A stretch of 24,000 nt of DNA from Sulfobacillus thermotolerans (GTDB lineage Bacteria; Bacillota; Sulfobacillia; Sulfobacillales; Sulfobacillaceae): contig CP019454.1 in the NCBI GenBank assembly GCA_002951815.1, positions 3,087,837 through 3,111,836 of the forward strand, given 5' to 3'. Below the pieces are notes generated by a model, which did not search any database, had not been told where the DNA came from, and saw nothing but the letters and a program-made list of their open reading frames with translations. Every line of letters begins with the position of its first letter. The first letter of the stretch is position 1. The translations under genes and the position numbers were made by a program. Shown here piece after piece: positions 2,023 through 23,300 of the stretch.

Positions 2023-2217
2023 GCCGTGCCCTCCTAATTGGATAATCATTCGTGATGCATTACAAGAATTCCTGCCTTGTCACACGATTCGCTGCTCTGA
2101 TAATCCCCTTGCTCTCCTTTACTTGTTATTATATAGTATCACAGGGGCTTTAAATTTTTCCCCATTTTCGTCCATCACCGCGAAGATGCCCGACACCCCT
2201 GAACAGGAGGATTATAC

Positions 2218-2556
2218 ATGGCAAAAATTGCATTCTGGATTACTGCTGGCCCAGGCTTGGAGGAAAAGGTTCTGGCCAACTTAGTGCTAGCCGGTCGCCT
2301 CAAGGCCAATCGCAATCAAGATATCGAAGTCTATTTCTTTGGCCCTGGCGTTAAATTGGCTGGTCAAGCCGAAGGCCATCTGGCTGAAGCCTTAAAAACC
2401 CTCTCCTCCGGACAAGTCCCCATGGGCGCGTGTCCTTTTAACGCCGACCAATATGGCGTCACGACCACTGTGACTGAACAGGGCATTCATATGGAGCCTG
2501 CCGGCGAGGCCCTTGTCCGTCTGACCGAGCAAGGTTACCAGATTGTCGGTGTCTGA
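2218..2556 (+). CDS. DsrE/DsrF-like family protein (small sulfur-relay-like protein)
   Basis: 112 aa. AGGAGGA SD sits 6 nt upstream. The pattern KIAFWITAGP..EVYFFGPGV...GACPFNADQYGV resembles DsrE-family proteins. A strong terminator follows. Confidence 0.55.
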   Translation: MAKIAFWITAGPGLEEKVLANLVLAGRLKANRNQDIEVYFFGPGVKLAGQAEGHLAEALKTLSSGQVPMGACPFNADQYGVTTTVTEQGIHMEPAGEALVRLTEQGYQIVGV

Positions 2557-2578
2557 GCATTAAGTTCTTCAGCTCACC

Positions 2579-2618
2579 AATCCTTGGGGCATCCGCGTCT
2601 CGCCCCAAGGATTTTTTT
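2579..2618 (+). terminator. Rho-independent terminator
   Basis: 12-bp perfect stem AATCCTTGGGGC / GCCCCAAGGATT (2579-2590 / 2602-2613), 11-nt loop, then a T7 run. Confidence 0.85.
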
Positions 2619-2963
2619 GACCTCTTTTAATTAATGATGAGGTCACAACTGCTATTGAAGACCGTTCATGCCCTGCCATAGCCATTACCCACTTTCGGCA
2701 TAAACCGTCAAACTTTGTGCAGCGCCTGCAAATCTTCGCAACATAAAATGAAAGGCCTGACGAAATTCTTAAGGTTTTGCGATCGATTTTCTAGCGTAAA
2801 ACCAAAAATTGGAAAGAAAAAACTAGACGCATTGTCTGGGGTGCGCCATAATAAACCGTGGTTTTTGACAAGCCCATTTTCCGATACGACAGTGCCCTTC
2901 ATAATTCGGGTTTCCTCACCACCATATGGAGCCCCCAATAAAAATGACGATTGGAGAGAAAAA

Positions 2964-4916: not shown

Positions 4917-5789
4917 TTATTGAGCCATCAGATCAGCGTTTAGACCACCCGCGATGCGGCCCATACCCTGGGACACCACAATGCGGACGGGTAACGCCGT
5001 CATCGATGCCCCCGCTTTTGCGGTATATGAGACTTGCCCTTGACTATTGGTGGTTAGATGCGTGCCGCCCGAGGAACTCATCGAGGATCCCCCCATAGAC
5101 GAGGAAGCTCCGGGCGTTTTCGGCGTGACACTGACACTCGCTCCAGACACCGGGCCTGAAGGACTCATGACCGTAATCGTAAGCGGCTGAGATGATCGTG
5201 CGGCAACCACCCGGGCAAACGGTTGAACCACAACGTAGTCGCCGACTGGAGCCGTCGGATTTGTCGTGGACGTTGTCCACCAAGCATCCATGAGCCCCGC
5301 TCCTTTCATGGAAGACGGATTAAACGTACTTAAAGAACCCACTTTGATGCCAATCATCTCCATCGTCTTGGTGGGCTGGCCACGGAGCACAATGGTAGCT
5401 TGTCCCATGCTGTTCGTTGTTTTCGAATAGCTTGCCACGTAAGGCGAAGCCGTTTGGGCGCTAGTCGAATACCACTGGCTCACCCCGGCACCTAACGGCA
5501 CCATGGGCCCAATATAGACGGTCACAGGTTGATTAGCCGCCGGTTGTCCACTGGCCGTTGTGGCCGTTACGACAAATGTGGCTTCTTGCCCAGCTTGGAC
5601 CATTTGAGCCGTTTTATTGGTATTGAGTTCTGCCACCGTCACGGAAGATGCAGCGGAACTTTTGCTAGCGGGTGTGCTGCTCATGGTGCTCGAGCCAGAC
5701 GTCTGAGGCTTGGCGGCTTGCGATGTGGTCCCGCATCCGGCCAACACGGCCGTCAAAGATACGGCCACCCCGATTACTCGTTTGGTCAT
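4917..5789 (-). CDS. Secreted lipoprotein with bacterial Ig-like (Big_1-type) segments
   Basis: 290 aa. It has the lipobox VLAGC, an S/T-rich linker and the Big-like strings GQEATFVVTATTASGQPAANQPVTVY and TTNSQGQVSYT. SD GGGGAGG lies upstream. Confidence 0.65.
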   Translation of the reverse strand: MTKRVIGVAVSLTAVLAGCGTTSQAAKPQTSGSSTMSSTPASKSSAASSVTVAELNTNKTAQMVQAGQEATFVVTATTASGQPAANQPVTVYIGPMVPLGAGVSQWYSTSAQTASPYVASYSKTTNSMGQATIVLRGQPTKTMEMIGIKVGSLSTFNPSSMKGAGLMDAWWTTSTTNPTAPVGDYVVVQPFARVVAARSSQPLTITVMSPSGPVSGASVSVTPKTPGASSSMGGSSMSSSGGTHLTTNSQGQVSYTAKAGASMTALPVRIVVSQGMGRIAGGLNADLMAQ

Positions 5790-5818
5790 AAACTTGCTAA
5801 CCTCCCCAAGAAGCTTTT

Positions 5819-5841
5819 GTAAACTACATTTTGTAGTTTAC
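5819..5841. promoter_or_regulatory. Perfect 10-bp inverted repeat GTAAACTACA-TTT-TGTAGTTTAC (TACA/TGTA dyad); candidate operator
   Basis: Read directly from the sequence. It lies 30-52 nt upstream of the lipoprotein start codon, is AT-rich with a 3-nt spacer, and has no flanking T-run on either strand, so it is unlikely to be a terminator. Confidence 0.4.
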
Positions 5842-5875
5842 ACTGCATTAGAATCTCCTGGCAAGGCATGCCCGC

Positions 5876-6502
5876 CTATGACATGGGAGCAAACTGGCTT
5901 GCAATCAATTCGTTAGAACCCGCTGAAGCCGGAATATAGATGCGAAACAACTGTAAGCGGACGTACGTTCCATCTTGTTGAAAATCTAACCGGTAAGCAG
6001 GTCCTCCCACGCCATAAATCAACATCCATTGGGCTGCAACCCCATCAGCCAACATCACATTGGCCACACTGGCCGGTTGATACGCCGGATCGATGGGTGT
6101 GTTTGATTCGATAGCCAACATGTTGTTGAATTCCAGGTCTAAGTCCGGTCCATCAACATAACTTTCTTCTAATGCCGTATCCGGATAAGCATGCGTCGGC
6201 AATAGAAGATGCAAATGCAGGGAACGGGCCCGTGCTAAGGCGTTAGTCCACACGCTACCCGAATAAGCCATCTTGGCCAACCCGTTAGGTCCTACCGGCG
6301 CGCTACCTGGCGATGACGGCAACACGCTTTGGCGATGCACATGGCGTGCATGATGCGCCCGCACGGTCGCAATAGCTTGGGATTGTACCGGATGCGTTAC
6401 GGGAATAACAGGCGGCAACAACAAAGAAACCCCTCGGTAAAAGACCACCACCGCGGCTAGGCCGCCAACCACGGCCCCGATTCCCTTGACCCATGCCCTC
6501 AC
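5876..6502 (-). CDS. Membrane-anchored hypothetical protein (N-terminal TM, extracytoplasmic domain)
   Basis: 208 aa. SD GGAGGTGG lies upstream. There is one N-terminal hydrophobic helix (GIGAVVGGLAAVVVF). No family was recognised. Confidence 0.55.
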   Translation of the reverse strand: MRAWVKGIGAVVGGLAAVVVFYRGVSLLLPPVIPVTHPVQSQAIATVRAHHARHVHRQSVLPSSPGSAPVGPNGLAKMAYSGSVWTNALARARSLHLHLLLPTHAYPDTALEESYVDGPDLDLEFNNMLAIESNTPIDPAYQPASVANVMLADGVAAQWMLIYGVGGPAYRLDFQQDGTYVRLQLFRIYIPASAGSNELIASQFAPMS

Positions 6503-6578
6503 TCGTCCACCTCCTGATGCTGTATCCCTATCGTTATTGTACTGGACAATGCCGATCTATGGGCGGGCATACGGGATT

Positions 6579-7475
6579 TTAAGCCATACTGGCCGGAACT
6601 CGCATGACGGTTTGCACAAAACGCTCGCCAATTCGCGTCATCGCATCACGATGATAGACCAATGAAAACGTTCGGTATAAACTCAACCCCGCGACTTGCA
6701 CCGAGGCAAATAAATCGCGCTCTCTTGGCTCAATCGTGAGCGGAGACAAAACACTAACCCCCAGTCCTTTAAGCATCATCTGCTTAATCGCATGTGTTGT
6801 CCCTAAAACCAAACGAATATTTAACTGCTTGAGATCAATCCCTTCATAGCCTAAAGCATTTTCTAAAGCCATGCGGGTCCCTGAACCTGGTTCACGTAAA
6901 ATTAATGGCTCTTCCATGAATTCTTCTAACGTCACTTCCTGGCGTTCAGCCCAAGGATGCGTGCGTGCCACCATCACCACCGGCTGATCATCAAAAAATG
7001 GCCGGACCACCACCTGTGCATCGACCATAGGCGCTTCAATAAGACCTATATCCAAGGTATGATTGAGCACTTGCTCGAAAACTGTACGTGAATTGGCCAT
7101 GGTAACGGACCACCGAGCATTAAGCATATCCCGGCAATACTCAGCCAATATACCCGGCAATAGATATTCGGCAATGGTCAAACTCGCCCCAATAGCGAGT
7201 ACTTGGGGACGGTTATCCGTTAACTCCTGCACCGCGTCTTGCGATTCATGGATTAGCCGCAGCAAAGCAGTGACATAGCGATATAGCACTTCACCCATTT
7301 CCGTCAGGTGTACCCCTTGGCTAGTACGTACAAAAAGGTGTGTCGCATAAGATTGCTCAAGCATTTGAATTTGTTGACTGACAGCTGATTGGGATAAGTT
7401 GAGAGCTCGCGCCGCTTGAGAAATCGAGCCCACTTCTGCTACCATCTTAAAAGTCGTCCAGACTTGTTCGTTCAC
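6579..7475 (-). CDS. LysR-family transcriptional regulator
   Basis: 298 aa. It has the N-terminal HTH FKMVAEVGSISQAARALNLSQSAVSQQIQMLE and a typical LysR substrate-binding-domain length, and is divergent from a membrane protein gene. Confidence 0.9.
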   Translation of the reverse strand: MNEQVWTTFKMVAEVGSISQAARALNLSQSAVSQQIQMLEQSYATHLFVRTSQGVHLTEMGEVLYRYVTALLRLIHESQDAVQELTDNRPQVLAIGASLTIAEYLLPGILAEYCRDMLNARWSVTMANSRTVFEQVLNHTLDIGLIEAPMVDAQVVVRPFFDDQPVVMVARTHPWAERQEVTLEEFMEEPLILREPGSGTRMALENALGYEGIDLKQLNIRLVLGTTHAIKQMMLKGLGVSVLSPLTIEPRERDLFASVQVAGLSLYRTFSLVYHRDAMTRIGERFVQTVMRVPASMA

Positions 7476-10693: not shown

Positions 10694-11452
10694 ATGCGGC
10701 CGTTATATTGGATCGTCGCATTAGGATTTGGCCTTCTGACGATTAATGCCAATCCGGTCATTAGCTGGCCTGGGCTCAGCCCCCAGTCTGATCCTGTCTC
10801 GATTCCAGCACCTCAACCCTTCTCGTTGCAACCGCCCTCACAAGGCGAGCCCTTGGAAATGAGCCGGAACTGGGCCGGATATGTCAATTCCAGCGCCACC
10901 TACACCGCTGTTCAGGCCACGTGGCGTGTTCCAACCCTTATCTCCAATGGCTCATTAGCCATCTGGGTCGGTGTCGGCGGCGCCCCTCAAAGGCGGTTGC
11001 TGCAAGCTGGCACATTGACGAAAAAGACCGCTTACGGTACCAAAACCATATTGTGGATTGAAGGATTACCGCAACCATTAAAACCCATTGCCCGCAATTT
11101 GCCAGACGGCGCGCCAGTGCATATTGCCATTACCCATGTCAAAGCGGCTCGGTGGAATTTGACACTGCAAGCGGGCAACTACCGGCAAATTTTTCATGTC
11201 CGCTATCCACTCACCGCGAAGAGTGCCGAGTGGATCGTCGAAGACCCTCTGATTAATAATAAGTTCGCCCACTTTCCCACCTTCCATCCTATCGAGCTGT
11301 TCTACGCTAAAGCCCAAACAAGCACGGGTGTGACCGTCACCGCCAAACAATCCATGCCCATCGATTTGCGCATTCATGGCGCCATTGATGCCGCTCCCAT
11401 TTTAGTCAGCAACACCACGTTTGCGGTGAGCCTGCCCGCCTTTCGTCCCTAG
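10694..11452 (+). CDS. Peptidase family G1 (eqolisin / scytalidoglutamic-type glutamic peptidase), secreted
   Basis: 252 aa with an N-terminal signal or anchor. The ordered G1 hallmarks are present: SRNWAGY, TWRVPT, IWVGVGG, LLQAGT (candidate catalytic Gln, codon 11003-11005) and AEWIVEDP (candidate catalytic Glu, codon 11228-11230). Confidence 0.8.
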   Translation: MRPLYWIVALGFGLLTINANPVISWPGLSPQSDPVSIPAPQPFSLQPPSQGEPLEMSRNWAGYVNSSATYTAVQATWRVPTLISNGSLAIWVGVGGAPQRRLLQAGTLTKKTAYGTKTILWIEGLPQPLKPIARNLPDGAPVHIAITHVKAARWNLTLQAGNYRQIFHVRYPLTAKSAEWIVEDPLINNKFAHFPTFHPIELFYAKAQTSTGVTVTAKQSMPIDLRIHGAIDAAPILVSNTTFAVSLPAFRP

Positions 11453-11579: not shown

Positions 11580-14500
11580 TTAGACCGTCAACGCGGTATC
11601 GACCCCATCAAAATACACCATGAACGTTCCCGCATCGGTCGCCGTATAGGGGACGGTAAAGGTTTGACTACCTGTCGAGGCACTGGTCACCGCCGTATAC
11701 ACCGCCCCGGGGGCGAGATTCCCGACCGTATCAAGATCACTAGAAGGCACGATGACCACCGATTGCCCAGAGGATACACCCGTTCCGTCGTTCACTGTCA
11801 CTACAAGGCTACTACCCGATACCGCTGCAACGACGGTGGGCGATGACGGGGTTAAAAGCGTCACGGGTCGAATTTGAGACGGACGCTGGTAGTTGTCGGT
11901 GACGGCCGTGGTGATGCCCGCTTGTGTCAGTGCATTGACACTCACCGCAATCACATCCCCTGAGGGAAGTTCGGGATTTTGGCCCGACAATGTCAACACC
12001 ACTTGAGACCCGTTCACCTGCGCTGACGCTATCTGATATTGTACGTTGGTGGTCAGATCTGTCACCGTAAACTGAGACCCGTTGGGTAGCACAGAATCTG
12101 GATTCAGAGTTCGCGAGAAGCTGACGGTCAATTGGTTAGGCAGATTATCGGCGCTCAAGCTGAGCGATACGGGGGTTAGGGTAGTGGGAACCGGCGGCTG
12201 TGTCCATGTCACATGGCTGATCAGCCACTGGGAACTTCCGACCATTTGTGCCATAACCGTATCGCTTTCTCCAAGACTGCCCGAGGACAATCCGACTTGG
12301 GCGAAACCACTGGCGTTTGTCGTGGCTTGGGAGTTCGTAAGGACCGCTGTTTGTTGACCGGATACAGAAAATGCAATCGGAACGTTAGTCTCAGGGCTGC
12401 CATTTGGACCCAGCACTTGCACCGTCAGGTCTGCGGTTTGCCCAACCGCCGCCAATGCTAAGGGAGTTGGTGCCCATTTAAGCACCGGTGCATCATTGGA
12501 CGTTTGCCACTGAACAGGAATGGTCAAGTGCGCATAGGCCGATGTGGGCCCTTGACCCACGTCGGGCCCGCCATCAATCCATATGGCCTCTGGCAATGCG
12601 GAATCTACCGCCAGCGTGATGGCTTGCGACCCCGGTTGCGAAGAGGCATCTTCAAAGGTAGCCTGCCCCTGGGCATTTGAGATCACATCCACCTTATTCA
12701 GCGTCCCTGTCCCCGTTCCCGTGATGGAGATCTCCATTCCCTCTAATGGCATCTGACCGGCCAATAAAGTCATCCCGAACTGCGTGGAGCCTGGTGTCAA
12801 CGTCACCAAAGGCGCTTGAGTAAAAGCATTAGACACATCTAAATTCTGGCCTCCTTGGGGTGTATAAATTAAGCTGACAGGAAGCCACTGCACCATAACG
12901 GTAGGGGAAGGGGCCATCTTTTGATCACTGACCATGGTCTCAAATCCTTGACTAAACGCCGACACAATGGCTTTGACATTCCCCGCTCCGGTCAATACCA
13001 CAGACGCCGTGCCGTTAGCACCTGTCTCGCTTTGTTTCGTCAAGACCTGAACGCCGGCCCCACTAATTTGCCATGTCACAGGCGTACCCGCGGCCACCAG
13101 ATTACCATTGTCATCCGTAACAGTCGCGGTGACTTGCACCGTTTGTCCCGCCAAAGCATTCCCCCACGGTTCACTTGCTGCTTGTGAGGTGGGAACAAAT
13201 GATACGGCCGTATATAATCCCGGCAAAGGAAAGGCCACGCCAGGAATTTGCGGTACTCCGTAGAGTTCGGCAATTCCTGATTGCCGCGCCCTCACACTTC
13301 CCGAAGGGTCCCATGTCAGCTGAGGTGCCGCCAGCGCTTCAGAAGGCGTCACAGGGATGACGCTTTGACCTGATATCAGGATATTTTGGCCTTGTCCATT
13401 GTTTTGCGATGGAATCCAATAGGCCGCGGTAACCGCGCCTCCGCCAAGCGCTTCAACGACGCCGTCTCCCACTTCGGGATATACCGGCACTGCGGCTTGA
13501 TACGTGGTGCCTTCTTGATATTGCGTTCCTAAATCAGCTGCGGCCTGACTTGCACTTAAAGGGCTAAAAGCGGTGAAACTAATCGGATTCGCCGTCCACG
13601 TCACGTCGCTCGCCGGAACCCGAAGACTTGTGACACTTTGGGCAAGGGGATAATAGGTCACAAACTGCACCCCCACCCCTGTAGCTTGTACACTCGTCAC
13701 GGTCGACGGCGCGGTAAGCGTAAACGTTAATTGGCCGCCATCAGACTGAGCCGGAAGTTGCACACCAAAATTATTGGCGGCTAAGGGCCCCGTCAACACC
13801 CGCACGTAAGGAGTGGAACCATCTTGAGGTGTGTACGTGACCGTTAAGGCACTACCCGCTGACAACCCTAAACTTGAAATGTTTACGCTAGCGCTCGAAA
13901 AAGCTTGCGGTACTACAATAGGCACAGAATGCCATACAGTATCGGCTCCATAAGAACCCGATGTTTGGTTCACCGCAATGGTCTGTGGCGCGGTCGAGGT
14001 TTGTGGCAGCAAAAATTGCGCAGAAAGCATCGGCTCAAGGGGCACGCCGGTGTTCTGGCTCACCGCATAGGCTTGCGTTTGCATCGATGTCCCAAGCCGT
14101 TGGCTCGTCATGACGGAGCCCGTCGCAGATCCGATGGTGGTTCCAGTCTCATTCAGCGCTGCGAAAAGGACTTGCCCTTGAACGGGCTGCAAGGCGGGGG
14201 CCGATGGCACTGAGACTTGATAACCGACGGCGGTCACAGCAGAGGCGTCTAAGGCTAGGGCTGAGGAAGAATTGTCGTTGGGATTGGTCACTGTCATTGT
14301 TGTGGTGGCAATGCCCTGGGCATTGGTGACAGCATTGCCATTTAATCCTTGGGGAAAGGTCACATGGTCGGCTGGATTCGAATCATTCGTCGCCGTAAAC
14401 ACCACCGGAACATCCGCCAATGGTTGACCATCAGCTCCTGTCACCACCGCTTGCACTTGGGCCGTTTGCCCCAAGAGCAGGGCATTAGGATTACTTAGCA

Positions 14501-15224
14501 CTGATAAAGGATTCATGAGCGAGGTCGTCAGGGAATCCGCTGCCACGGTCTTTGGTGCAGCGGTAAACGTATGGGTCTGACTCCACACGGCATCTTGATT
14601 GGTATTAGGCGCTGCCGGATCCTTAGCATAAGCAATGATATGATACGTGCCTGCTTCCGGCGGCGTGTAGGTAAAAGAATGGTTGCTTTGATATCCGCCA
14701 CTCGCCGTCCATTGCCCTTGGGGATTTTCCACCCAAAATTGGTAAACCGGTGAAATGAGGTTGCGTGCTTGAGCTACGACTGTCATTCCCTGATTTTGCG
14801 TAGCGGTCGATTCCACACTGAGATGCACCGCACTCCCGACATTCACAATGGCCGTCGCCACCGATGCTTGATCCCATAAGCCCGAATGGACAGAAGAGGC
14901 ACTAAGCGCGTAGACCGCCACCACATAGCTTCCATCTGCGAGAGCCAATTGAAACCTCGGATTGGGGGAATAATTGCGCGCCATGGACCAACCTTTCTGG
15001 GTTTGGACCCAAAATTGATAGTCGGCCGATTCCCCAGTGGCGACTGCCTGAAACGTCACGGTGTGGCCAGCTTGTGCTGTTCCATAGCGGTTCAGTGAGA
15101 GCTGTGTGAGATTTTGTGGCGCGGAGGAAGCCTGCACTACAGAGGTATTGAGAACAGAGGCCGCGAGTCCCGCCACGAAGAGACTCCGACCCAAACGTTT
15201 GCTGAACAGAGATAAAACCTCCAT
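11580..15224 (-). CDS. Large secreted surface protein (1214 aa): 2 N-terminal YQFW-type (triple-tyrosine-like) repeats plus several Big_1-like Ig domains
   Basis: The signal peptide ends at VVQA/SS. Two tandem repeats of about 100 aa carry YQFWVQTQKGW and YQFWVENPQGQW. There are at least three invasin-like units (GQTAQVQAVVTGADGQPLADVPVVF, GQTVQVTATVTDDNGNLVAAGTPVTW, GQTADLTVQVLGPNGSPETNVPIAF). No SLH, LPXTG or PEP-CTERM-like anchor is seen. No SD precedes the ATG. Confidence 0.85.
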   Translation of the reverse strand: MEVLSLFSKRLGRSLFVAGLAASVLNTSVVQASSAPQNLTQLSLNRYGTAQAGHTVTFQAVATGESADYQFWVQTQKGWSMARNYSPNPRFQLALADGSYVVAVYALSASSVHSGLWDQASVATAIVNVGSAVHLSVESTATQNQGMTVVAQARNLISPVYQFWVENPQGQWTASGGYQSNHSFTYTPPEAGTYHIIAYAKDPAAPNTNQDAVWSQTHTFTAAPKTVAADSLTTSLMNPLSVLSNPNALLLGQTAQVQAVVTGADGQPLADVPVVFTATNDSNPADHVTFPQGLNGNAVTNAQGIATTTMTVTNPNDNSSSALALDASAVTAVGYQVSVPSAPALQPVQGQVLFAALNETGTTIGSATGSVMTSQRLGTSMQTQAYAVSQNTGVPLEPMLSAQFLLPQTSTAPQTIAVNQTSGSYGADTVWHSVPIVVPQAFSSASVNISSLGLSAGSALTVTYTPQDGSTPYVRVLTGPLAANNFGVQLPAQSDGGQLTFTLTAPSTVTSVQATGVGVQFVTYYPLAQSVTSLRVPASDVTWTANPISFTAFSPLSASQAAADLGTQYQEGTTYQAAVPVYPEVGDGVVEALGGGAVTAAYWIPSQNNGQGQNILISGQSVIPVTPSEALAAPQLTWDPSGSVRARQSGIAELYGVPQIPGVAFPLPGLYTAVSFVPTSQAASEPWGNALAGQTVQVTATVTDDNGNLVAAGTPVTWQISGAGVQVLTKQSETGANGTASVVLTGAGNVKAIVSAFSQGFETMVSDQKMAPSPTVMVQWLPVSLIYTPQGGQNLDVSNAFTQAPLVTLTPGSTQFGMTLLAGQMPLEGMEISITGTGTGTLNKVDVISNAQGQATFEDASSQPGSQAITLAVDSALPEAIWIDGGPDVGQGPTSAYAHLTIPVQWQTSNDAPVLKWAPTPLALAAVGQTADLTVQVLGPNGSPETNVPIAFSVSGQQTAVLTNSQATTNASGFAQVGLSSGSLGESDTVMAQMVGSSQWLISHVTWTQPPVPTTLTPVSLSLSADNLPNQLTVSFSRTLNPDSVLPNGSQFTVTDLTTNVQYQIASAQVNGSQVVLTLSGQNPELPSGDVIAVSVNALTQAGITTAVTDNYQRPSQIRPVTLLTPSSPTVVAAVSGSSLVVTVNDGTGVSSGQSVVIVPSSDLDTVGNLAPGAVYTAVTSASTGSQTFTVPYTATDAGTFMVYFDGVDTALTV

Positions 15225-15500: not shown

Positions 15501-15950
15501 ATGACTTCACCACTATGGCGTTTGTCTGGCGTCTTGGGCATCGCAGCCACCATGGTTTTGGCACTTGGCAGCATGACCATGGCAGCAAGTAACTCAAACT
15601 CTACGCAAGAAGGCTATGTTAGCATTACCAATGTTAAGGGCAACACAGCAACGGCGACATGGTACTGGTCTGGATTAACAGACGGAGAATATGTGGCCGT
15701 GGAAGCGATCTACAATGGCACCACCACGCCACTACCAGCGTCTGACGGAACAGTCACAACAGCAGGTACTTACTCGACCACTGTGACGCTCCCTCCAGGT
15801 GATACATCGTGGTCGAACACGACCATTGAAATGGCTGAAGCAAACTTTGCCGAGGGGCAACTACCCGAAGTTCCGTGGGCTGCAGGCCTTCCGTTGATTT
15901 TAGTGTTGCCATGGGCCGTTTCGGCATGGCGTCGTCGTATTCCGGGGTAA
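15501..15950 (+). CDS. Small secreted T/S/N-rich protein with PEP-CTERM-like C-terminal sorting signal (LPEVP, hydrophobic helix, RRR)
   Basis: 149 aa. The signal peptide is LALGSMTMA/AS. The C-terminus LPEVPWAAGLPLILVLPWAVSAWRRRIPG (nt 15861-15947) has the tripartite motif, TM helix and basic-cluster layout of exosortase substrates. Confidence 0.7.
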   Translation: MTSPLWRLSGVLGIAATMVLALGSMTMAASNSNSTQEGYVSITNVKGNTATATWYWSGLTDGEYVAVEAIYNGTTTPLPASDGTVTTAGTYSTTVTLPPGDTSWSNTTIEMAEANFAEGQLPEVPWAAGLPLILVLPWAVSAWRRRIPG

Positions 15951-15962
15951 CTTTTCGTGATT

Positions 15963-16010
15963 TTGGCATCTTTGCTCGCCGTCATGCGCAGCTGCGGGCA
16001 AAGATGCCAA
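15963..16010 (+). terminator. Long hairpin after the cargo gene (possible terminator or attenuator)
   Basis: 13-bp perfect arms TTGGCATCTTTGC / GCAAAGATGCCAA. The 22-nt loop contains the palindrome CGCAGCTGCG. The downstream TATAATTGTTG is only moderately U-rich. Confidence 0.35.
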
Positions 16011-16173: not shown

Positions 16174-16899
16174 ATGCCCAACCATTCCAACACCGATTCG
16201 TATTACGATCAAGCCTTGAAACTGATGGCCCAAGGTGCCTCTATTGACGACATGATTACCACGTTAAATACTTCACGAGGCGAAATTTATCATACCGTGC
16301 GTGTCATTTTTACGGATATGCTGCGCCGCTATGGGGCGATTGCTGCAGCGACCTCATCCGTACCTGAGATTGCGGAATGGGACGCCTTAACCGGGGCGCT
16401 GACGCGCCGCACCGGAGAAATTGCGTTGCTGCAGATGTTACAAAAAACCCAGGAGGACCAGCCATTTTCGATTATTTTTCTCGATCTCGATAACTTAAAA
16501 CAAATGAATGATGCCTATGGTCACAAGGCTGGTGACCATCTGCTCTGTCAACTGGTGCACGTGGTCCTATCCAATATTCGGCGCTCAGACCAGTTAATCC
16601 GCTGGGCCGGGGATGAATTTATCCTGATATTGCCACATACGCCCAAAGCTATCGCGTGTGAAACGCTCAAACGCTTGCGCCGTGCCGATCCCACGCTTCA
16701 ATTTTCGGCCGGGGTAGCCCAGTGGGAACCCGGTGACTCCTTGTCCTCTCTCATCGACCGTGCTGACCGTGCCATGTATCAAGACAAGCGTCAGCGCAAG
16801 ACACAAACGTCCTCGTCTTCAAAGCAGATCCGTCATTTCGTTCGGGAACACCGGGCCATTAAACCTCCCCTTAAGGTTCGCAGCCTTTCTGATTCTTAA
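16174..16899 (+). CDS. GGDEF-domain diguanylate cyclase (AGDEF variant, intact RxxD I-site)
   Basis: 241 aa with SD AAGGAGG. The domain reads DALTGALTRR...FLDLDNLKQMNDAYGHKAGD...RRSDQLIRWAGDEF. The I-site RRSD is at 16579-16590 and AGDEF at 16606-16620. The 75-aa N-terminal region is uncharacterised and possibly HTH-like. Confidence 0.85.
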   Translation: MPNHSNTDSYYDQALKLMAQGASIDDMITTLNTSRGEIYHTVRVIFTDMLRRYGAIAAATSSVPEIAEWDALTGALTRRTGEIALLQMLQKTQEDQPFSIIFLDLDNLKQMNDAYGHKAGDHLLCQLVHVVLSNIRRSDQLIRWAGDEFILILPHTPKAIACETLKRLRRADPTLQFSAGVAQWEPGDSLSSLIDRADRAMYQDKRQRKTQTSSSSKQIRHFVREHRAIKPPLKVRSLSDS

Positions 16900-17042: not shown

Positions 17043-17156
17043 ATGCCTTCACCGACCGTCCTTCGTTTCAGCGCTGCCCTAGAAATGGTTACGGATTACC
17101 CTAGGTCTTTTACGCGGTTAGAAAGCGCCGCGTGGTTCAGTCATGACGAAAAATAG
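17043..17156 (+). CDS. Possible 37-aa upstream micro-ORF overlapping the exosortase start by 14 nt
   Basis: ATG at 17043 is preceded by AAAGGGA. The product is MPSPTVLRFSAALEMVTDYPRSFTRLESAAWFSHDEK. The exosortase ATG itself lacks an SD, so translational coupling is conceivable. There is no other support. Confidence 0.2.
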   Translation: MPSPTVLRFSAALEMVTDYPRSFTRLESAAWFSHDEK

Positions 17157-18768
17157 CGCCATATCGAGAACTCCAAGGCATAGCCTGACGGGGTTTTGGA
17201 TTCTCTGGGTTGGCCTTTGCACAGCTCCTCTGTTAGCCTATGCGTCTCCGTTATGGCAAAACATTTTAGCGGACACTCCTATTGCCGATTTGATTTGGAT
17301 TCCCATCTTGGCCATAGGATGGGCCTCATGGAATTTGCTGGCCGTCCCTTTTGAAGGACCTGATGATAGTGAACTCGATGCGATTTTGGGCATCAGTCTT
17401 GCCGCTATTACAGGGCTGGCTCTCATCGTTGGACCTGCGCGTTGGCCTACGGCGTTTGTCTTTGATCATGCTGGACTCCTCCTCTGGCCGCTTTGGATCT
17501 TAGCGATGACGTGGCTTTTTTGGGGTATTGGCGCGACTCGCAAAGTGCTAGGTCCGCTCGTCTACTTATTACTGGTCTGGCCCCCGGTCTTTGAAGCTAT
17601 TGCTAACGCCACGCAGACCCTTTTGGTGACTTGGGCCATTCGCATTCTTCAATATTCCACAGCCTCTTTTGGATGGATCCACGCAATTCAACCCTTTGGG
17701 ACGTTTAATGTCGCGTACGGGCATATCGAGTTTCCTGTAATTGTTGCCGAAGCCTGCAGCGGGGCGGATAGTTTGTTAGGCGCCGCTATCGTCATCCCCG
17801 TTATTTGGTTTTTGCTAAACGGCAGATGGCAACACAAGCTCTATCTTAGCTTGATTGCACTCACCGGCGCTCTGGTTTTGAATTGGATCCGGCTCATAGC
17901 GATTGTCCTAGCCGTTCATATCATTGGTCCCCATTTTACCTTTTCCTATATCCATCCGGTACTAGGATTCGTGCTCTTTGCCATGCTGACTGTGGTCTTA
18001 ATTGGGTTAATGAGGCCTTTCGGCTTATCCATGCCGTCTCCCCAAGAAAACCGGTCGATCCCTCACGCAGGCGTTGGTCGGCTCATTGCCGCCATTTTAC
18101 TATCTGGCCTGGTGTTCTATTTGCTCACCCCTTTGTTTTCCCTAGCCAAAGGGAGTTTCGGCAAGCCCCAGCCCATCTCCCACAACGCCCTCAGTGCCTT
18201 GATTCCAGACCTTCGGGGCTTCATGAGCGCATCGGTATACCATGCCAATGAATCCTCGATTTTAGGGCCGCATTCGGCTACACTTGCCGACATGTACGTC
18301 GATACGCACACCGGCCACGAAGCTTTGGTCGAGGTCTGGAGCGCTGCCAATGCCAATATGCTGGCAGCTTATGGGTTTCATAATTGTCTGTTGTATCATG
18401 GGGACAACATCGCCGCGGCCCAGTCCTTTCAACTGATTCCGGGCATTGTGGCCACCGCCTATGCGGTTACCTTGCCCGCCAACTACGTGGGAGGACCGAG
18501 ATCCACATATGTTGATATTGAGTGGACAGATTCGGTCAAGCAGCCTGATGGCGTGCGGTACTTGCGGTGGTCGCTTGCGGCTTTTCCGGCCAGTGCCCCA
18601 TCGCTTTCGTCATCCAGCCCTATTCGGTTAGATCCGCTCACGGTATCTGAAGCCATGGTTGCACCCCGCACTCACGGAACATGGACGGGAGCCATCGCGA
18701 CAACCAAAACCAATCTCATCACCATGGCTGAACGCATTCTTCACCAAAGTTTGCAGCCCAAGGCTTAG
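17143..18768 (+). CDS. Exosortase/archaeosortase-family transpeptidase fused to an EpsI-like (DUF3485-type) C-terminal domain
   Basis: 541 aa. The N-terminal roughly 320 aa are polytopic and carry the family signature in order: VIVAEACSGADSLL (Cys205, codon 17755-17757), LNWIRLIAIV (Arg), AVHIIGPHF / YIHPVLG (His). The C-terminal roughly 210 aa are soluble and contain EALVEVWSAANANMLAAYGFHNCLLYHGDNI, which resembles the EpsI HxPxxC..G core. Confidence 0.75.
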   Translation: MTKNSAISRTPRHSLTGFWILWVGLCTAPLLAYASPLWQNILADTPIADLIWIPILAIGWASWNLLAVPFEGPDDSELDAILGISLAAITGLALIVGPARWPTAFVFDHAGLLLWPLWILAMTWLFWGIGATRKVLGPLVYLLLVWPPVFEAIANATQTLLVTWAIRILQYSTASFGWIHAIQPFGTFNVAYGHIEFPVIVAEACSGADSLLGAAIVIPVIWFLLNGRWQHKLYLSLIALTGALVLNWIRLIAIVLAVHIIGPHFTFSYIHPVLGFVLFAMLTVVLIGLMRPFGLSMPSPQENRSIPHAGVGRLIAAILLSGLVFYLLTPLFSLAKGSFGKPQPISHNALSALIPDLRGFMSASVYHANESSILGPHSATLADMYVDTHTGHEALVEVWSAANANMLAAYGFHNCLLYHGDNIAAAQSFQLIPGIVATAYAVTLPANYVGGPRSTYVDIEWTDSVKQPDGVRYLRWSLAAFPASAPSLSSSSPIRLDPLTVSEAMVAPRTHGTWTGAIATTKTNLITMAERILHQSLQPKA

Positions 18769-18925
18769 TTCATTCCACGCCTTTTGGGAATCTGACAGGT
18801 TTCTTAAAGGGGTCTCGTAAAAAGAAGCATCGACGGAGCTCTATATCTTTTCAGGTTTAGCGGTCTTTATGGAAAGCGAACCGACGCCACAGCTCTTGGT
18901 GCTTGCATGCGCAAGGAGGCATCTC

Positions 18926-19969
18926 ATGCATTATTTACGTTTATTATTCGCGAGCGCCCTGGCGTTAACTTTGGCAGGGTGTGGCCAAAAAGCTGCCGTT
19001 CAGCCCGTTGCCACACACCCACCCCACAAGGTGCACGTCGTTGCCAAGCCTTTAGTAGCTCCCCCTTGGCCCACAGTTCAATCAGGCATCAATGTCGAGG
19101 TGTGGAATACCCCGACCCCTTCTCAAATTGATGGCGTGATAAATGCTGTGGCTGCCTTGCACGTTCGCACCGTTGCCATTGTTATTCCTTTCGGACAAAG
19201 CAATTGGCAAGCCAATAATGTTGGCCCTGTGCATTTTACGCCGTCGCCCCGTGTCATTCGCCAGGTCATTTTGCAAGCGTACCACGATCATCTCAGCGTC
19301 ATGCTTCGTCCCATGTTAGACGAGGGCACGTTAACGCCTTCAGGTCATTGGCGTGGTGATATTGCACCGCAGTCATTGAACAGCTGGTTTAAGCACTATG
19401 CCCAGGCTCTCACCCCTTACGCTGCATTAGGACAACAAGAGCATGTCGGGGCTTTTGATATCGGCACAGAGCTCTCGTCAATAGAAAGCGATAACCAAGG
19501 CTGGGATACGGTTATACACGCGGTGAAACAGGTATATCAAGGCCCGCTCTTGTACTCGTTTAATTGGAATAGCCCGAGCTTAGCTGCCCTGCCACCATGG
19601 ACCAAACAATTAACGTGGATTGGTCTTGATGCCTATTATCCACTCAATACGCCTTCCGGTACCGAGTCGGCTTTGGTGCAGGCATGGCAGCCTTGGATAT
19701 CACAAACCGCTAAAATCCCTAACCTCGTCATCACGGAACTCGGCGTTATGCCCAAGCCTCATGCTTGGCAAGCCCCATGGGTCTGGGATCCTCCGGGACC
19801 AACGAACTGGTCCGTGCAAGCCCAATATGACGCAGCTGCCATTAAAGCGTGGCAGGGCCATGCCCAGGGTCTCTATTGGTGGGGCGTCATGCTGCCACGC
19901 TCAGGCCAAGGCGCCTCATTTGACCCCATTTGGCACCCGAGTGCGGCCGTGATTCAAACGGCATGGTAA
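18926..19969 (+). CDS. Lipoprotein, clan GH-A-like TIM-barrel glycoside hydrolase candidate
   Basis: I prefer the ATG at 18926 (AAGGAGG SD 6 nt upstream; MHYLRLLFASALALTLAGCG lipobox) over the track start at 18869. Candidate catalytic glutamates lie in FDIGTELSS and LVITELGV, about 90 aa apart as in (beta/alpha)8 retaining hydrolases. Confidence 0.6.
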   Translation: MHYLRLLFASALALTLAGCGQKAAVQPVATHPPHKVHVVAKPLVAPPWPTVQSGINVEVWNTPTPSQIDGVINAVAALHVRTVAIVIPFGQSNWQANNVGPVHFTPSPRVIRQVILQAYHDHLSVMLRPMLDEGTLTPSGHWRGDIAPQSLNSWFKHYAQALTPYAALGQQEHVGAFDIGTELSSIESDNQGWDTVIHAVKQVYQGPLLYSFNWNSPSLAALPPWTKQLTWIGLDAYYPLNTPSGTESALVQAWQPWISQTAKIPNLVITELGVMPKPHAWQAPWVWDPPGPTNWSVQAQYDAAAIKAWQGHAQGLYWWGVMLPRSGQGASFDPIWHPSAAVIQTAW

Positions 19970-20485: not shown

Positions 20486-22732
20486 TTACACAGCCGATTC
20501 TTGTGCAGAGTTCCCCATGACCGAGGTGACATCATAGGGTGCTGTGCTTAATCCGTGTACGGTTTTTTCCCAATGAGATGGCCGTGTGATCAGCTGCATT
20601 AAGGCTTTCCAAGACGCTAAAGACATCATGCTCCAATAAATGGGGGTCAGCACCGTATACGGTACCAGCTCCCAATTCCCTCGTTTGGCTACCCCCAACG
20701 CGTTAATATAGGTAAAGATGAAATTGCCGGCTAACAGATTAATCATACCTAAGTAATAGATGCCCGGAGGAAATAACGACGGAATCACATGCCAGTGGGT
20801 CATAAACCACAAACTCGTAAGAAACCAATACAGCGGGTTTAACAAAAACATGAGGGGAGTCCCTAAAATAGACATTTGAAATCCCCAAAATCCTCGTGCT
20901 CCCATGGACCGGTAGAGTTTAATGGGATGGCGCATATGCACCAACCATGTTTGAATATAACCTTTAATCCACCGTGAGCGTTGGCGAACCCAATTGACAA
21001 ATTCAGAGTTGGCCTCTTCATACGTATTCGAATCGATGACGGAAGCATAGTAACCGGCTTTGTAAAGGCGAATGCCTAGGTCCGCATCTTCGGTAACATT
21101 GTAGGGATCCCATCCTCCTAACTCGCGCAAGCGGTCAATGCGAAAATGGTTCGATGTCCCCCCTAAAGGAATGGGCAGCTTAGCGCGATATAACGCCGGT
21201 AAAAAGAGGTCAAACCACGATGCATACTCCGCCGTGAACCACCGCGTTAATAGGTTTTGTTCCGCATTAAAATAGGAGAGCTTGGCCTGGACACACGCCA
21301 GTTTATCGTCATGCTGACGAAATGCCACAATGGCTTTTTTGAGTTGCAAAGGTTCAGGCAGATCTTCCGCATCAAAAATGGTTACGTACTCCCCTCTGGC
21401 CAGTTGCAGTCCGTAATTGCAGGCTTTGGGCTTAGTGCGTGGCTCGCTTGGGGGGACAATCACGATATCGATGAAGTGCGGTAAGTTAGCGGCCTTTGCG
21501 GCCGCAATCGTGTCCTCGTCGTCAGCTTCAAGCAGTAACTTGACGTCGAGTCGGTCCTTTGGATAGTCAAGAGCATTTAGTGCCCGTGTTAGAGTTGGCA
21601 AGACGGCCGCTTCTTCACGGGCTGGTACTAAAATCGTATAAATCGGTAAATCGCGCTCGTCTAATGCCGCAACCATATCCTGACTCCCTAAGGCGGAATC
21701 AGGAATATCCGTGCCTTGGCGAATCATCCACAGACGATAGGCGATAGTCACAGAGTACATAATGATAAGCAAGCTACTGAGGACCGATATGGCCACACTA
21801 GGATGCCACACTAAGAGCGCGACGACACAAGCTAAGGTGACCGCAACACTAACCCATTGTCTTCGTGTCATAGTCTTTCGGGCAGAATCTTCAGGCCGAA
21901 CGGTAGCCAGGTGGTCACGGCTCATAGCCATATCAACAACGTGAAATCGGGCCGTTAACACGGCCTCAATATCACGCTTGCCAGACACCATAACTTGAGG
22001 AGCAGAGGGCAAAAGACGCTCTAATTCCTCCACCGCTTGTTGTGACTGCCACGGATCTTCGACAGCCAGCACAGCCGCCGACCCACTCCATCCAATGGGT
22101 ACCATCCGGGCTTGGCGCCAAAACTGTTCCTCCCTTAGAGCCCAGACATGGCTCAGATTGGGTTCGTGGGCAATTTTTTCTGGATCTTGTGCTAACAAGT
22201 TTACTTCCGGAAGGTTGAGTTGCGACGCTACAACCCGGGCCACCCCCCAATAAGTGAGGACCCGGTGCTGAACCAAAATTTGGCCGAGTTTTCCACCGCG
22301 CCGTGCCTGTTCTGCCAACGCGCTGTCAACATCGCGCGAGGAAATGAGCCCTAAACGTCTCGCGGTTTCTCCGAAATAAGATGATGGCCGCACATCATGG
22401 TGTTCACCCAAGACGCGTCGGTACGCGTGAGCAATGCTCCGCGCACTCGCACGGTAAAGTGTTACCGGCACGACAATGCGTCCTAATAAAGCTCGTGCGT
22501 CATCACTTAAGGGAAACACCGCAGCCACACAGACCCTGCCCGAATCAAACCGAAAGGCTAGCAGGCCAGCCTTTTGTGCACTGGCCGCATCTAACATGAG
22601 TGCTGCACTCGGGTCAACGGGGTCATGGATTTGTCCCTGAGAATTCCTTGTGGGAAAGAGGTCGATGCTCTCAATGTCCTCTTGAGATATCGCGGCCATG
22701 GAATCCACAAAATGACTCGGATCGACTATCAT
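20486..22732 (-). CDS. Processive family-2 glycosyltransferase (exopolysaccharide synthase) with N-terminal T2SSE_N/MshEN-like domain
   Basis: 748 aa. The N-terminal roughly 290 aa carry two tandem 24-residue MshEN-like motifs, YFGETARRLGLISSRDVDSALAEQ and KLGQILVQHRVLTYWGVARVVASQ, separated by the spacer ARRGG (nt 22220-22378). TM helices follow, then a GT2 core with YTILVPAREE, FDAEDLP and RQRSRWIKGY (QxxRW), then C-terminal TM helices. Confidence 0.85.
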   Translation of the reverse strand: MIVDPSHFVDSMAAISQEDIESIDLFPTRNSQGQIHDPVDPSAALMLDAASAQKAGLLAFRFDSGRVCVAAVFPLSDDARALLGRIVVPVTLYRASARSIAHAYRRVLGEHHDVRPSSYFGETARRLGLISSRDVDSALAEQARRGGKLGQILVQHRVLTYWGVARVVASQLNLPEVNLLAQDPEKIAHEPNLSHVWALREEQFWRQARMVPIGWSGSAAVLAVEDPWQSQQAVEELERLLPSAPQVMVSGKRDIEAVLTARFHVVDMAMSRDHLATVRPEDSARKTMTRRQWVSVAVTLACVVALLVWHPSVAISVLSSLLIIMYSVTIAYRLWMIRQGTDIPDSALGSQDMVAALDERDLPIYTILVPAREEAAVLPTLTRALNALDYPKDRLDVKLLLEADDEDTIAAAKAANLPHFIDIVIVPPSEPRTKPKACNYGLQLARGEYVTIFDAEDLPEPLQLKKAIVAFRQHDDKLACVQAKLSYFNAEQNLLTRWFTAEYASWFDLFLPALYRAKLPIPLGGTSNHFRIDRLRELGGWDPYNVTEDADLGIRLYKAGYYASVIDSNTYEEANSEFVNWVRQRSRWIKGYIQTWLVHMRHPIKLYRSMGARGFWGFQMSILGTPLMFLLNPLYWFLTSLWFMTHWHVIPSLFPPGIYYLGMINLLAGNFIFTYINALGVAKRGNWELVPYTVLTPIYWSMMSLASWKALMQLITRPSHWEKTVHGLSTAPYDVTSVMGNSAQESAV

Positions 22733-23161: not shown

Positions 23162-23204
23162 GAGATTAGAAAAACTTGGAAGAACCAAGTCAAGCATTGA
23201 AACG

Positions 23205-23300
23205 GCCGATAAGGGCAAACCTGATTGAAAAACAGGGACGCAAAACTAAAGGGGCTTCTTACCATTACGGTAAATGCCAGCCAGTTGCCGAAACGGGACA
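23205..23300 (+). promoter_or_regulatory. c-di-GMP-I (GEMM-I) riboswitch aptamer
   Basis: The sequence reads aaGGGCAAACCtgattGAAAaacagGGACGCAAAaCtaaaGGGGc..(hairpin TTACC/GGTAA)..gCCAGCCAGTTGCCGAAa. This matches the GEMM-I core as I recall it: GGCAAACC, a GNRA-type hairpin, GGGACGCAAAGCC, a second hairpin, then AGCCGGGUUACCGA. GGCAA and TTGCC can close P1. Confidence 0.75.

Follow-up and report, generated by a model that had tools for sequence, protein, structure and literature searches.

The locus described here raises the question of whether a bacterium with a single membrane can possess an exosortase that acts on a recognizable cargo signal and, if so, what that signal looks like. Exosortase systems were defined in outer-membrane bacteria, whereas Sulfobacillus thermotolerans (Bacillota) is Gram-positive and has one membrane, such that the outer-membrane host that is a feature of PEP-CTERM systems is absent here. 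Within the window, i.e., the entire 24,000-nucleotide stretch of DNA that was analysed, the first-pass annotation had singled out one small gene as encoding a candidate exosortase cargo, with a tripartite C-terminal signal of the PEP-CTERM class and a motif unlike PEP. At the level of sequence, this proposal is supported by the paralogous tails and the exosortase adjacency documented below, and the 149-amino-acid product is, in our judgment, a likely substrate of the exosortase whose gene lies 1.2 kb downstream. Many unrelated proteins of Sulfobacillus and related organisms share its tail, and their genes almost always adjoin that of one unnamed exosortase; very probably, then, the tail is a new signal for the sorting of proteins in bacteria with a single membrane.

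The cargo gene (15501..15950, + strand) starts with ATG and stops with TAA; its product has 12 homologues with identities of 42-99%, and no Pfam or NCBIfam family was matched by the whole protein, by its tail on its own or by a set of 26 proteins that share this tail. By inspection, residues 1-28 (15501..15584, +) form a predicted Sec signal peptide, consisting of MTSPLWR, a hydrophobic core and T-M-A, followed by A; the AF2 model places a helix at residues 5-29. Next comes a mature domain of about 90 amino acids (15585..15854, +), 39% of which are T, S or N, and which is predicted to be a beta-sandwich of 6-7 strands. These strands were modelled between residues 38 and 113 with low confidence (pLDDT 59.8), and a Foldseek comparison of this low-confidence model with the PDB returned weak matches to FN3/Ig/CBM21-like folds, with E values of at least 0.02. 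The three N-x-S/T sequons of the protein (N33, N72 and N106) are indeed present, as had been noticed when they were taken to be consistent with a glycosylated surface protein, but they lack conservation: across 13 members of the cargo family the number of sequons varies from 0 to 5 and their positions differ, and N-glycosylation was hence rejected as unsupported. Right after the stop codon lies a strong hairpin (15963..16010, +; -32.8 kcal/mol, z = -4.4 against shuffles) with no T-run, which is possibly a terminator or an mRNA stabiliser.

The tail of the cargo is GQLPEVPWAAGLPLILVLPWAVSAWRRRIPG, and the C-terminal end of the protein, LPEVPWAAGLPLILVLPWAVSAWRRRIPG, is identical to that given by the first-pass annotation, whose reading of a short motif, a hydrophobic helix and an Arg cluster at the C-terminus was reproduced. 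The order is PEVP, 18 mostly hydrophobic residues, RRR, and three further residues. The motif P122-E-V-P, beginning at base 15864, was likewise confirmed to take the place of the canonical PEP; however, the true signature extends beyond it to 14 residues, G119-Q-L-P-E-V-P-W-A-A-G-L-P-L132 (15855..15896, +), a block that is invariant in the orthologues and common to 18 groups of otherwise different mature domains, with PE[VAL]P[WY] as its most general core. A hydrophobic membrane-spanning segment, W126-W143 (15876..15929, +; AF2 helix 126-145), directly abuts the motif, and the basic cluster RRR with IPG (15930..15947, +) makes up the cytoplasmic end. The conserved layout is thus GQLPEVPWAAGLP, then a membrane helix, then arginines. 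In all 12 orthologues PEVPWAAG-PL is invariant, while the identity of the mature domain falls to 42-46%.

The 18 mature-domain groups comprise the 67 tail-ended proteins that were collected. When 185,579 species genomes were scanned at the DNA level with the degenerate pattern PEVPWAAx[LIV]P, 41 matches were obtained. In 24 of these the motif is in frame and belongs to a C-terminal tail, where it is followed by a helix and a basic cluster, the stop codon coming 27-40 residues later; their hosts are Sulfobacillus or related Bacillota metagenome-assembled genomes (MAGs), plus one Acidimicrobiaceae MAG, and almost all of the 17 matches lacking the tail architecture came from other phyla. A tail-only profile of 31 positions, searched against 1.84 billion representative proteins, matched at the extreme C-terminus in 29 of 32 cases, and a 44-column tail alignment used as a homologous-protein query retrieved nothing at E <= 10. 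As regards the geometry of the tail, in 62 tails 14-19 residues (median 17) separate PEVP[WY] from the first basic residue, the distance from the P of PEVP to the C-terminus is 27-43 residues, and a basic cluster was found in every tail collected. Under a crude criterion that asks for a basic residue, a hydrophobic core and a small-x-small site, a signal-peptide-like N-terminus was recognized in 53 of 62 tail proteins, most of the other nine being seemingly N-terminally truncated or mis-started. Some of the cargos are tiny, with 15-40 mature residues. The G, Q and L before the search pattern and the L after it, all of which are positions outside the DNA pattern, are kept in 21-24 of 25 tails while their codons vary. 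The third codon positions of the tail sequences are free to vary, which places the selection at the level of the peptide. On the same ground, we rejected the idea that the shared tail stems from a mobile cassette or from a repeat at the DNA level. Overall, the sharing of the tail is far above chance.

The search for paralogous tails was successful in the sister genomes, where the exact pattern revealed dispersed copies (four in DAIDDL01, three each in JAPNUO01 and JAPNUR01, and two each in PXYV01 and JAIMBD01). The scan gave no match from S. thermotolerans itself, a genome known here from the window only, and protein-cluster look-ups assigned no further tail proteins to this species. The window holds one intact tail, and its giant neighbour, a 1214-amino-acid Big_1 protein (11580..15224, - strand), lacks such a C-terminus, as had been stated. 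The claim that only one cargo is visible holds for intact genes; however, positions 17043..17156 (+) hold what is left of a second cargo gene with a tail, namely 37 codons, after an internal loss of about 455 bp, as seen by alignment with positions 6083-7041 of locus L002. In its intact form, this second gene encodes a 187-amino-acid product ending in SQLPEVPWAAALPLLMVSPWLFYAVRKRRVVRP, lies directly upstream of the exosortase gene and overlaps its start by 4 bp; Sulfobacillus sp. hq2 keeps it intact (WP_103375628.1). Since one of the two local cargo genes in the window is already destroyed, selection on the system may have been relaxed in this strain.

The enzyme itself (17143..18768, +) is a protein of 541 amino acids, identified as an exosortase by PF09721 (63.9 bits, cut-off 25.7), TIGR04178 (45.4 bits, cut-off 23), a conserved putative catalytic triad and its AF2 model (pLDDT 89.8, pTM 0.85), in which helices run across residues 13-290. 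It consists of a catalytic domain of about eight TM segments, an extra TM helix and a C-terminal alpha/beta domain. Invariant in 57 homologues are C205-S-G (in ACSG), N247, R250 (NxxR) and H271 (HP), and Cys205/Arg250/His271 are also kept in an Acidimicrobiaceae enzyme of 24% identity; a Cys415/His419 pair is separately conserved in the C-terminal domain. The enzyme nonetheless falls below every curated cut-off of the named subfamilies XrtA, XrtD, XrtG, XrtT, XrtV, XrtW, ArtC and CrtA, the scores being 49.3 against 208 for XrtA, 46 against 313 for XrtV, 16.6 against 102.75 for XrtG, 20.3 against 400 for XrtD, 21.8 against 425 for XrtW, 18.4 against 250 for XrtT, and 19.7 against 100 for archaeosortase C. 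It is accordingly treated here as an unnamed subfamily, for which public records carry generic names only; its UniRef name is 'Methanolan biosynthesis EpsI domain-containing protein'. The Pfam and NCBIfam models, EpsI (TIGR02914 / PF11984) among them, gave no match to residues 301-541 at E <= 10, and the C-terminal domain gave weak Mog1/PsbP/LpqN-like fold matches (E values of at least 0.1). Foldseek with the exosortase model against the PDB returned nothing significant, and a PDB sequence search with the exosortase profile returned noise only.

The association of tail and enzyme was assessed as gene adjacency. Of 15 distinct exosortase loci, 13 include a tail ORF in their available flanking sequence, and the identity of the enzyme in them ranges from 100% down to 24%; the tail gene thus stays by the same exosortase family, in agreement with the co-occurrence sought. 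The S. acidophilus locus contains two cargos with PEVPY; in lineages of 42-43% enzyme identity, PEAPW and PELPW cargo genes are located 57-60 bp upstream; in a lineage of 35% identity, a PEAPY cargo gene stops 8 bp before the enzyme; and in the Acidimicrobiaceae MAG with 24% identity, a PEVPW cargo adjoins it. In the short flanks examined of the remaining two loci, L048 and L049, no tail gene was seen, and there are further cases in which a tail protein and an exosortase are seemingly on the same contig.

The other neighbours connect this pair of genes to cyclic di-GMP. A GGDEF diguanylate cyclase gene (16174..16899, +; PF00990 116 bits, TIGR00254 103 bits) lies between the cargo gene and the exosortase, and is also found in the related loci L012, L020, L022, L031, L033 and L045. 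Downstream are a GH113-family glycoside hydrolase with a lipoprotein-like signal (18869..19969, +; PF22612 89.5 bits) and a family-2 glycosyltransferase resembling polysaccharide synthases (20486..22732, -; PF13632 87.5 bits, PF13641 77.1 bits), with an N-terminal c-di-GMP-binding MshEN domain (PF05157 46.1 bits); this MshEN-GT2 gene is kept next to the exosortase in L031, L041 and L045. Finally, a c-di-GMP-I riboswitch (23204..23292, +; RF01051 70.3 bits against a gathering score of 35) precedes the gene of a TIG-domain secreted protein, which begins at 23373 and runs past the window end. No homologue of PrsK, PrsR or PrsT was present among the genes scanned. Here, a Gram-positive acidophile has a polysaccharide locus under c-di-GMP control.

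The locus is close to several known systems. One of them is PEP-CTERM/exosortase (EpsH, XrtA) of Gram-negative bacteria (PMC1569441), which likewise has a tripartite tail with a P-E motif start, a helix and a basic cluster, diverse cargos with signal peptides, few known homologues and several copies per genome, and an enzyme of the same superfamily with a Cys/Arg/His triad in a polysaccharide locus; even the C-terminal extension of our enzyme recalls the known fused EpsH-EpsI forms. In contrast, the signal here is PEVPW within a 14-residue block rather than PEP, the GGDEF and MshEN-GT2 genes and the riboswitch tie the locus to c-di-GMP, and its hosts belong to the Bacillota, in addition to one Acidimicrobiaceae MAG, lineages that were listed as having neither PEP-CTERM nor an outer membrane (PMC1569441). 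The PEP-CTERM models TIGR02595 / PF07589 matched neither the tail alone, nor the whole cargo, nor 26 tail proteins; the other CTERM models gave isolated sub-threshold matches to the 26 tails, e.g., VPLPA-CTERM to one of them (E = 0.0056). The enzymes of VPLPA-CTERM/XrtD, XrtW and XrtT have about 470-500 residues, a C-terminal extension and a variant signal each, although the scores obtained here are far below their cut-offs. In a comparative genomic study of bioleaching strains, Leptospirillum ferriphilum was the only one reported to have the PEP-CTERM exosortase system, which was not found in Sulfobacillus (PMC5418355). Our literature search for the tail motif (PEVPWAA) found no paper, and neither the models nor the papers that we searched yielded an exosortase cargo signal for single-membrane bacteria.

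Two further systems operate with a single membrane. The 'Gram-positive' exosortase XrtG (TIGR03110) resembles ours in its hosts and in its position beside a family-2 glycosyltransferase, its partner TIGR03111, but the XrtG model covers 187 positions whereas the present enzyme has 541 residues and an extra domain, and the glycosyltransferase scored 24.1 against the TIGR03111 cut-off of 363.95. XrtG is not known to have a recognised cargo signal, whereas that of the exosortase here is obvious. Archaeosortase A of Haloferax volcanii, with its PGF-CTERM signal, is a homologous enzyme in a single-membrane cell, and its motif abuts the helix as it does here; the PGF motif, the archaeal host and the S-layer glycoprotein cargo all differ. 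In the summary given by a preprint, this enzyme is reported to be necessary for helix removal and lipid attachment (bioRxiv 10.1101/2023.06.07.544157). Archaeosortase A is the best mechanistic precedent for processing in cells that have no outer membrane.

A route for the cargo can be proposed. The signal peptide would direct Sec export across the single membrane of Sulfobacillus, upon which helix W126-W143 and RRR would hold the protein transiently in the membrane, with the GQLPEVPWAAGLP block at the outer membrane face. The membrane-embedded exosortase, through Cys205/Arg250/His271, would then recognise the block, cut in or next to it and remove the helix and basic tail; the segment WAVSAWRRRIPG would be absent from the mature form, which would end within or just before PEVPWAA. 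Lastly, the mature beta-sandwich domain may be handed to a cell-surface acceptor, by analogy with sortase and archaeosortase A; this acceptor could be a lipid, a wall polymer, or the polysaccharide that the adjacent GT2 synthase makes under c-di-GMP control. Recognition, cleavage, the cleavage site and the acceptor are what we infer, and transfer to an acceptor is an analogy, because to our knowledge no exosortase has a defined acceptor.

This proposal must be weighed against rival ones. On its own, a helix followed by RRR looks like a stop-transfer anchor, and the tail could be a plain, uncleaved one, with GQLPEVPWAAGLP being where the exosortase, through its C-terminal domain, or some other partner would dock and the proteins staying tethered to the cytoplasmic membrane; the tiny cargos could then be membrane-tethered peptides. 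We consider this unlikely, since the 14 residues kept across 18 mature-domain groups are far beyond the needs of an anchor, and the adjoining enzyme keeps the invariant Cys/Arg/His of a protease/transpeptidase family; the helix removal reported for ArtA/PGF-CTERM in the preprint cited above also argues against it. Even less room is left for mere chance, namely a lineage-specific small protein with a signal-like hydrophobic C-terminus: the window does contain a single intact copy and no database model recognises the tail, yet the block is under protein-level selection and is linked to the exosortase over deep divergence, which makes coincidence exceedingly improbable.

It is also conceivable that the exosortase serves polysaccharide export only and that the tail is processed by another enzyme, be it a rhomboid protease, a CPBP/Rce1-type protease or a sortase that takes LPEVP for an LPXTG-like motif; homologue P0085 is in fact an exosortase fused to a CPBP domain. 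The sortase A system shares with ours a C-terminal motif, helix and basic tail, a Cys/Arg/His enzyme and a single-membrane cell, and the initial L-P-E resembles LPXTG, whose model TIGR01167 weakly matched one of the 26 tails (E = 0.069). Nonetheless, sortase has an unrelated enzyme fold, and LPXTG has an obligatory T-G and a spacer before the helix, both of which the tail lacks; a motif abutting the helix directly, in contrast to LPXTG, is described as characteristic of signals whose cleaving enzyme is embedded in the membrane (Haft, bioRxiv 10.1101/2023.06.07.544157). Moreover, several tails carry T or M in place of L, with PEVPW remaining fixed. The genes called in the Sulfobacillus loci include no sortase, and a sortase-domain gene, situated 2 kb from the cargo in the Acidimicrobiaceae locus L006, shows LTLSTS where the catalytic TLxTC box is expected. 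A sortase substrate was therefore rejected, and, considering that adjacency tracks the exosortase in every lineage, we deem processing by any other enzyme very unlikely.

Processing by the neighbouring exosortase is thus the reading that we adopt. A more specific version of it, put forward tentatively as a possibility, is that the enzyme is a c-di-GMP-controlled transpeptidase that would covalently join small Ig-like proteins and very short peptides to the MshEN-GT2 exopolysaccharide, a wall polymer or a lipid, with Cys415/His419 taking part in acceptor handling; the product would be the protein part of a biofilm matrix for colonising sulfide minerals. The system is useful in that it combines a sharply defined signal, small and simple cargos and a single membrane, and as the single membrane leaves fewer possible destinations (membrane lipid, wall or secreted polysaccharide), the exosortase acceptor question becomes more tractable. 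In genome annotation, a PEVPW-tail profile together with a model of the enzyme subfamily would end the 'hypothetical' labels of these proteins. For the biology of the organism, the finding suggests that Sulfobacillus, which is used in bioleaching, has a matrix module under c-di-GMP control.

The 149-codon ORF at window positions 15501-15950 (+) was found intact, and its translation ends in GQLPEVPWAAGLPLILVLPWAVSAWRRRIPG; the first-pass annotation, which proposed the protein as a candidate exosortase substrate with an LPEVP-type C-terminal tripartite signal, had described this tail (motif, membrane helix and basic cluster) accurately. The N-terminus of the protein, hereafter the cargo, resembles a signal peptide (MTSPLWR, a hydrophobic core and T-M-A, then A), and Thr, Ser and Asn make up 39% of the composition of the ~90-residue stretch that follows. 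The cargo fold was tentatively modeled as Ig/FN3-like, and comparative support was absent for the N-glycosylation that had also been proposed. The neighboring giant protein had been said to lack the tail, which holds for the divergently encoded 1214-aa Big_1 protein (11580-15224, -). The gene of this Big_1/Y_Y_Y surface protein adjoins, upstream of the locus, that of a peptidase A4 with a signal peptide (10694-11452, +; PF01828, 76 bits), of an acid-active glutamic peptidase family. Directly 3' of the cargo stop codon lies a long hairpin with a 17-pair stem (15963-16010, +; -32.8 kcal/mol, z = -4.4), which is no canonical intrinsic terminator because it lacks a T-run.

A homologue search retrieved 12 cargo homologues, every one from Sulfobacillus or metagenome bins. 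Identity in their mature domain falls to 42-46%, and P-E-V-P-W-A-A-G-x-P-L is invariant in all 12, the preceding G-Q-L being nearly so; judged from these sequences, the tail is under stronger conservation than the rest of the protein. Selection acts on the tail peptide rather than on its coding DNA. Across 25 tails, the fixed P, V and A are each encoded by three or four synonymous codons, and residues outside the search pattern (G, Q and L at -3 to -1, and L at +10) are still kept in 21-24. Among 62 collected tail proteins, 14-19 residues (median 17) separate PEVP[WY] from the first basic residue, and the median distance from the first P to the C-terminus is 29 residues. By a crude rule, 53 of the 62 begin with a signal-peptide-like sequence, and most of the other nine look N-terminally truncated or mis-started.

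When back-translated PEVPWAAx[LIV]P was scanned over 185,579 species, with one genome per species, 41 matches were obtained, none of them from S. thermotolerans, the source of the window, and not even the tail of the window itself, as this genome or region apparently lay outside the searchable set. In-frame tails at ORF ends accounted for 24 matches, all with a hydrophobic stretch, then a basic cluster and then a stop 27-40 residues past P-E; their hosts were Sulfobacillus, related bins named 'Bacillota bacterium' and a single Acidimicrobiaceae bin. The other 17, nearly all from other phyla, lacked the tail architecture, in agreement with the ~10 matches estimated by chance for this pattern. 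Multiple dispersed copies occur in several genomes: DAIDDL01 on four contigs, JAPNUO01 and JAPNUR01 three each, and PXYV01 and JAIMBD01 two each. A local HMM built from 26 tails detected diverged forms such as PEVPY, as well as three cargo genes in tandem in the related locus L009. Searched against 1.84 billion representative proteins, a 31-position tail profile gave 32 matches at E <= 0.001, 29 of them at the extreme C-terminus and the remaining three repetitive false positives. One tail-bearing protein, P0102 (TFE66282.1 / WP_134440803.1), is assigned by NCBI to Methylacidiphilum caldifontis (Verrucomicrobiota); its 1,004-bp contig most probably represents contamination by a Sulfobacillus-like organism.

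The tail is common to otherwise unrelated proteins. Clustering of 67 collected tail proteins, after removal of signal peptide and tail, produced 18 groups, of which the largest (37 members) comprises the family of the window cargo and distant paralogues; among the others are a GLUG-repeat protein of 472 aa and proteins of only 95-111 aa. Some cargos are tiny, consisting of a signal peptide, ~15-40 mature residues and the tail (L046 ORFs ending at 600 and 895, minus strand; L021:2529-2816; L040:5293-5628), and their processing would leave just a short peptide.

The exosortase is the 541-aa product of the ORF at 17143-18768 (+), 100% identical to AUW95156.1 (BXT84_15320). It passes the family models PF09721 (63.9 bits) and TIGR04178 (45.4 bits), and scores below the cut-off of every named subfamily tried (XrtA, 49 vs 208; XrtV, 46 vs 313; XrtG, 17 vs 103). 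A homologue search retrieved 74 proteins of ~540 aa; those with names belong to S. thermotolerans, S. thermosulfidooxidans, S. acidophilus, and Firmicutes or Clostridia bins, under generic protein names only. All 57 aligned homologues, as well as the Acidimicrobiaceae relative, keep Cys205 (ACSG), Asn247, Arg250 and His271. The AF2 model, which is confident (pLDDT 89.8), places an additional membrane helix (311-327) and an alpha/beta domain (360-480) after a helical membrane domain. In the C-terminal domain, presumed extracytoplasmic, Y410, C415, H419 and G420 of the YGFxxCLLYHG stretch (residues 410-420; 18370-18405, +) are likewise invariant in the 57 homologues and in the Acidimicrobiaceae enzyme of 24% identity, and might together make up a second functional site. 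The domain had no Pfam or NCBIfam match, despite which UniRef labels the protein EpsI-domain-containing; EpsH-EpsI fusions have been known since the first description of the PEP-CTERM system (PMC1569441). Another homologue, P0085 (387 aa, JGI), carries a fused CPBP/Rce1-like PF02517 domain, a kind of fusion already noted in that 2006 paper (PMC1569441).

Tail and exosortase were found to be linked, in the sense of gene neighborhood, as read from the compared loci. Members of the cargo family adjoin the exosortase in L012, L020, L022, L031 and L033 (enzyme identity 55-80%) and in L050 (65%). The flanks of more distant enzymes were scanned with the tail HMM. In S. acidophilus (L045; enzyme 48%), there are two cargos, ending in GETPEVPYAAVLP and GDTPEVPYAAGLP, one of which stops 18 bp before the enzyme. 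The tail gene lies downstream of the enzyme in the P0074 lineage (L043, L044; 43%; NYLPEVPYAFGVP), and ends 8 bp upstream in the P0083 lineage (L041, L042; 35%; NELPEAPYALVFP), 57 bp upstream in L047 (43%; DLPELPWPVLLLP) and 60 bp upstream in L046 (42%; NLPEAPWPVVLP), the last also encoding two tiny PEVPY proteins at a distance of 9 kb. Even in the Acidimicrobiaceae bin (L006; 24%), a 248-aa protein with the tail ETPEVPWAATLP is encoded ~1 kb upstream. Only in the short flanks available for L048 and L049 was no tail gene found, and the total was 13 of 15 distinct loci. The tail core that survives these comparisons is PE[VAL]P[WY]. L006 also contains, at 1166-2692 (-) and 5685-6398 (+), a sortase-domain gene (PF04203, 104.6 bits) in which LTLSTS stands at the TLxTC box, with Ser replacing the catalytic Cys, and a paralogue of the tail protein that ends in a helix and basic cluster without PEVPW.

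A second cargo gene was recognized in L002: flanked by the GGDEF gene and the exosortase, it encodes a 187-aa product that ends in SQLPEVPWAAALPLLMVSPWLFYAVRKRRVVRP, and its stop overlaps the exosortase start codon. Intact forms of the gene are present in Sulfobacillus sp. hq2 (WP_103375628.1) and on MAG contig PXYU01000097.1, the latter with the overlap described. The window has lost ~455 bp of it, and retains a 37-codon frame-shifted remnant (17043-17156, +).

The window also encodes a GGDEF diguanylate cyclase (16174-16899), a GH113 hydrolase (18869-19969) and a family-2 glycosyltransferase with a c-di-GMP-binding MshEN domain (20486-22732, -). A c-di-GMP-I riboswitch (23204-23292, +; RF01051, 70.3 bits) lies upstream of the gene of a TIG-domain secreted protein (663 aa, with a weak GH79-like region), which begins at 23373 and continues past the window edge; counting the riboswitch, the GGDEF gene and the MshEN-GT2, the locus has three c-di-GMP elements. 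The MshEN-GT2 and GGDEF genes recur in related loci, as does a conserved ~530-aa membrane protein (L041:1900-3507; L043:6953-8542; L045:15640-17301; L001:19924-20450) that resembles PMT_2, a GT-C glycosyltransferase, below threshold (18-25 bits, cut-off 26.1) and adjoins MshEN-GT2 in L041 and L045. This protein could glycosylate the Thr/Ser-rich cargos or modify polysaccharide. The locus has the look of a polysaccharide and matrix module under c-di-GMP control, a setting expected of exosortase systems (PMC1569441).

Alongside the observed tail anatomy and conservation, enzyme family membership and tail-enzyme linkage, the most likely mechanism is that Sec would export the cargo, the C-terminal helix and RRR cluster would hold it transiently in the membrane, at the outer face of the membrane the exosortase would recognize the GQLPEVPWAAGLP block, which Cys205 would cleave, and the mature domain would be passed to a surface acceptor; recognition, cleavage and acceptor are here proposed by analogy with sortase and archaeosortase A (bioRxiv 10.1101/2023.06.07.544157). 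The tail differs from LPXTG in that its motif abuts the helix without a spacer, a junction typical of signals cut by membrane-embedded enzymes (bioRxiv 10.1101/2023.06.07.544157).

The system would work like PEP-CTERM/exosortase, but the tail falls outside the PEP-CTERM domain family, as that family is defined, having neither the PEP motif nor an HMM match. S. thermotolerans belongs to the phylum Bacillota, and the lineages of the tail hosts are listed as lacking both the PEP-CTERM system and an outer membrane (PMC1569441). In a comparative-genomics study of bioleaching strains, Leptospirillum ferriphilum alone was found to have a PEP-CTERM exosortase system, and Sulfobacillus was not (PMC5418355); the tail motif was not found in the literature searched. 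For these reasons, we regard this as a new form of a known type of system, with an exosortase subfamily that has no name as yet and has a sorting signal of its own.
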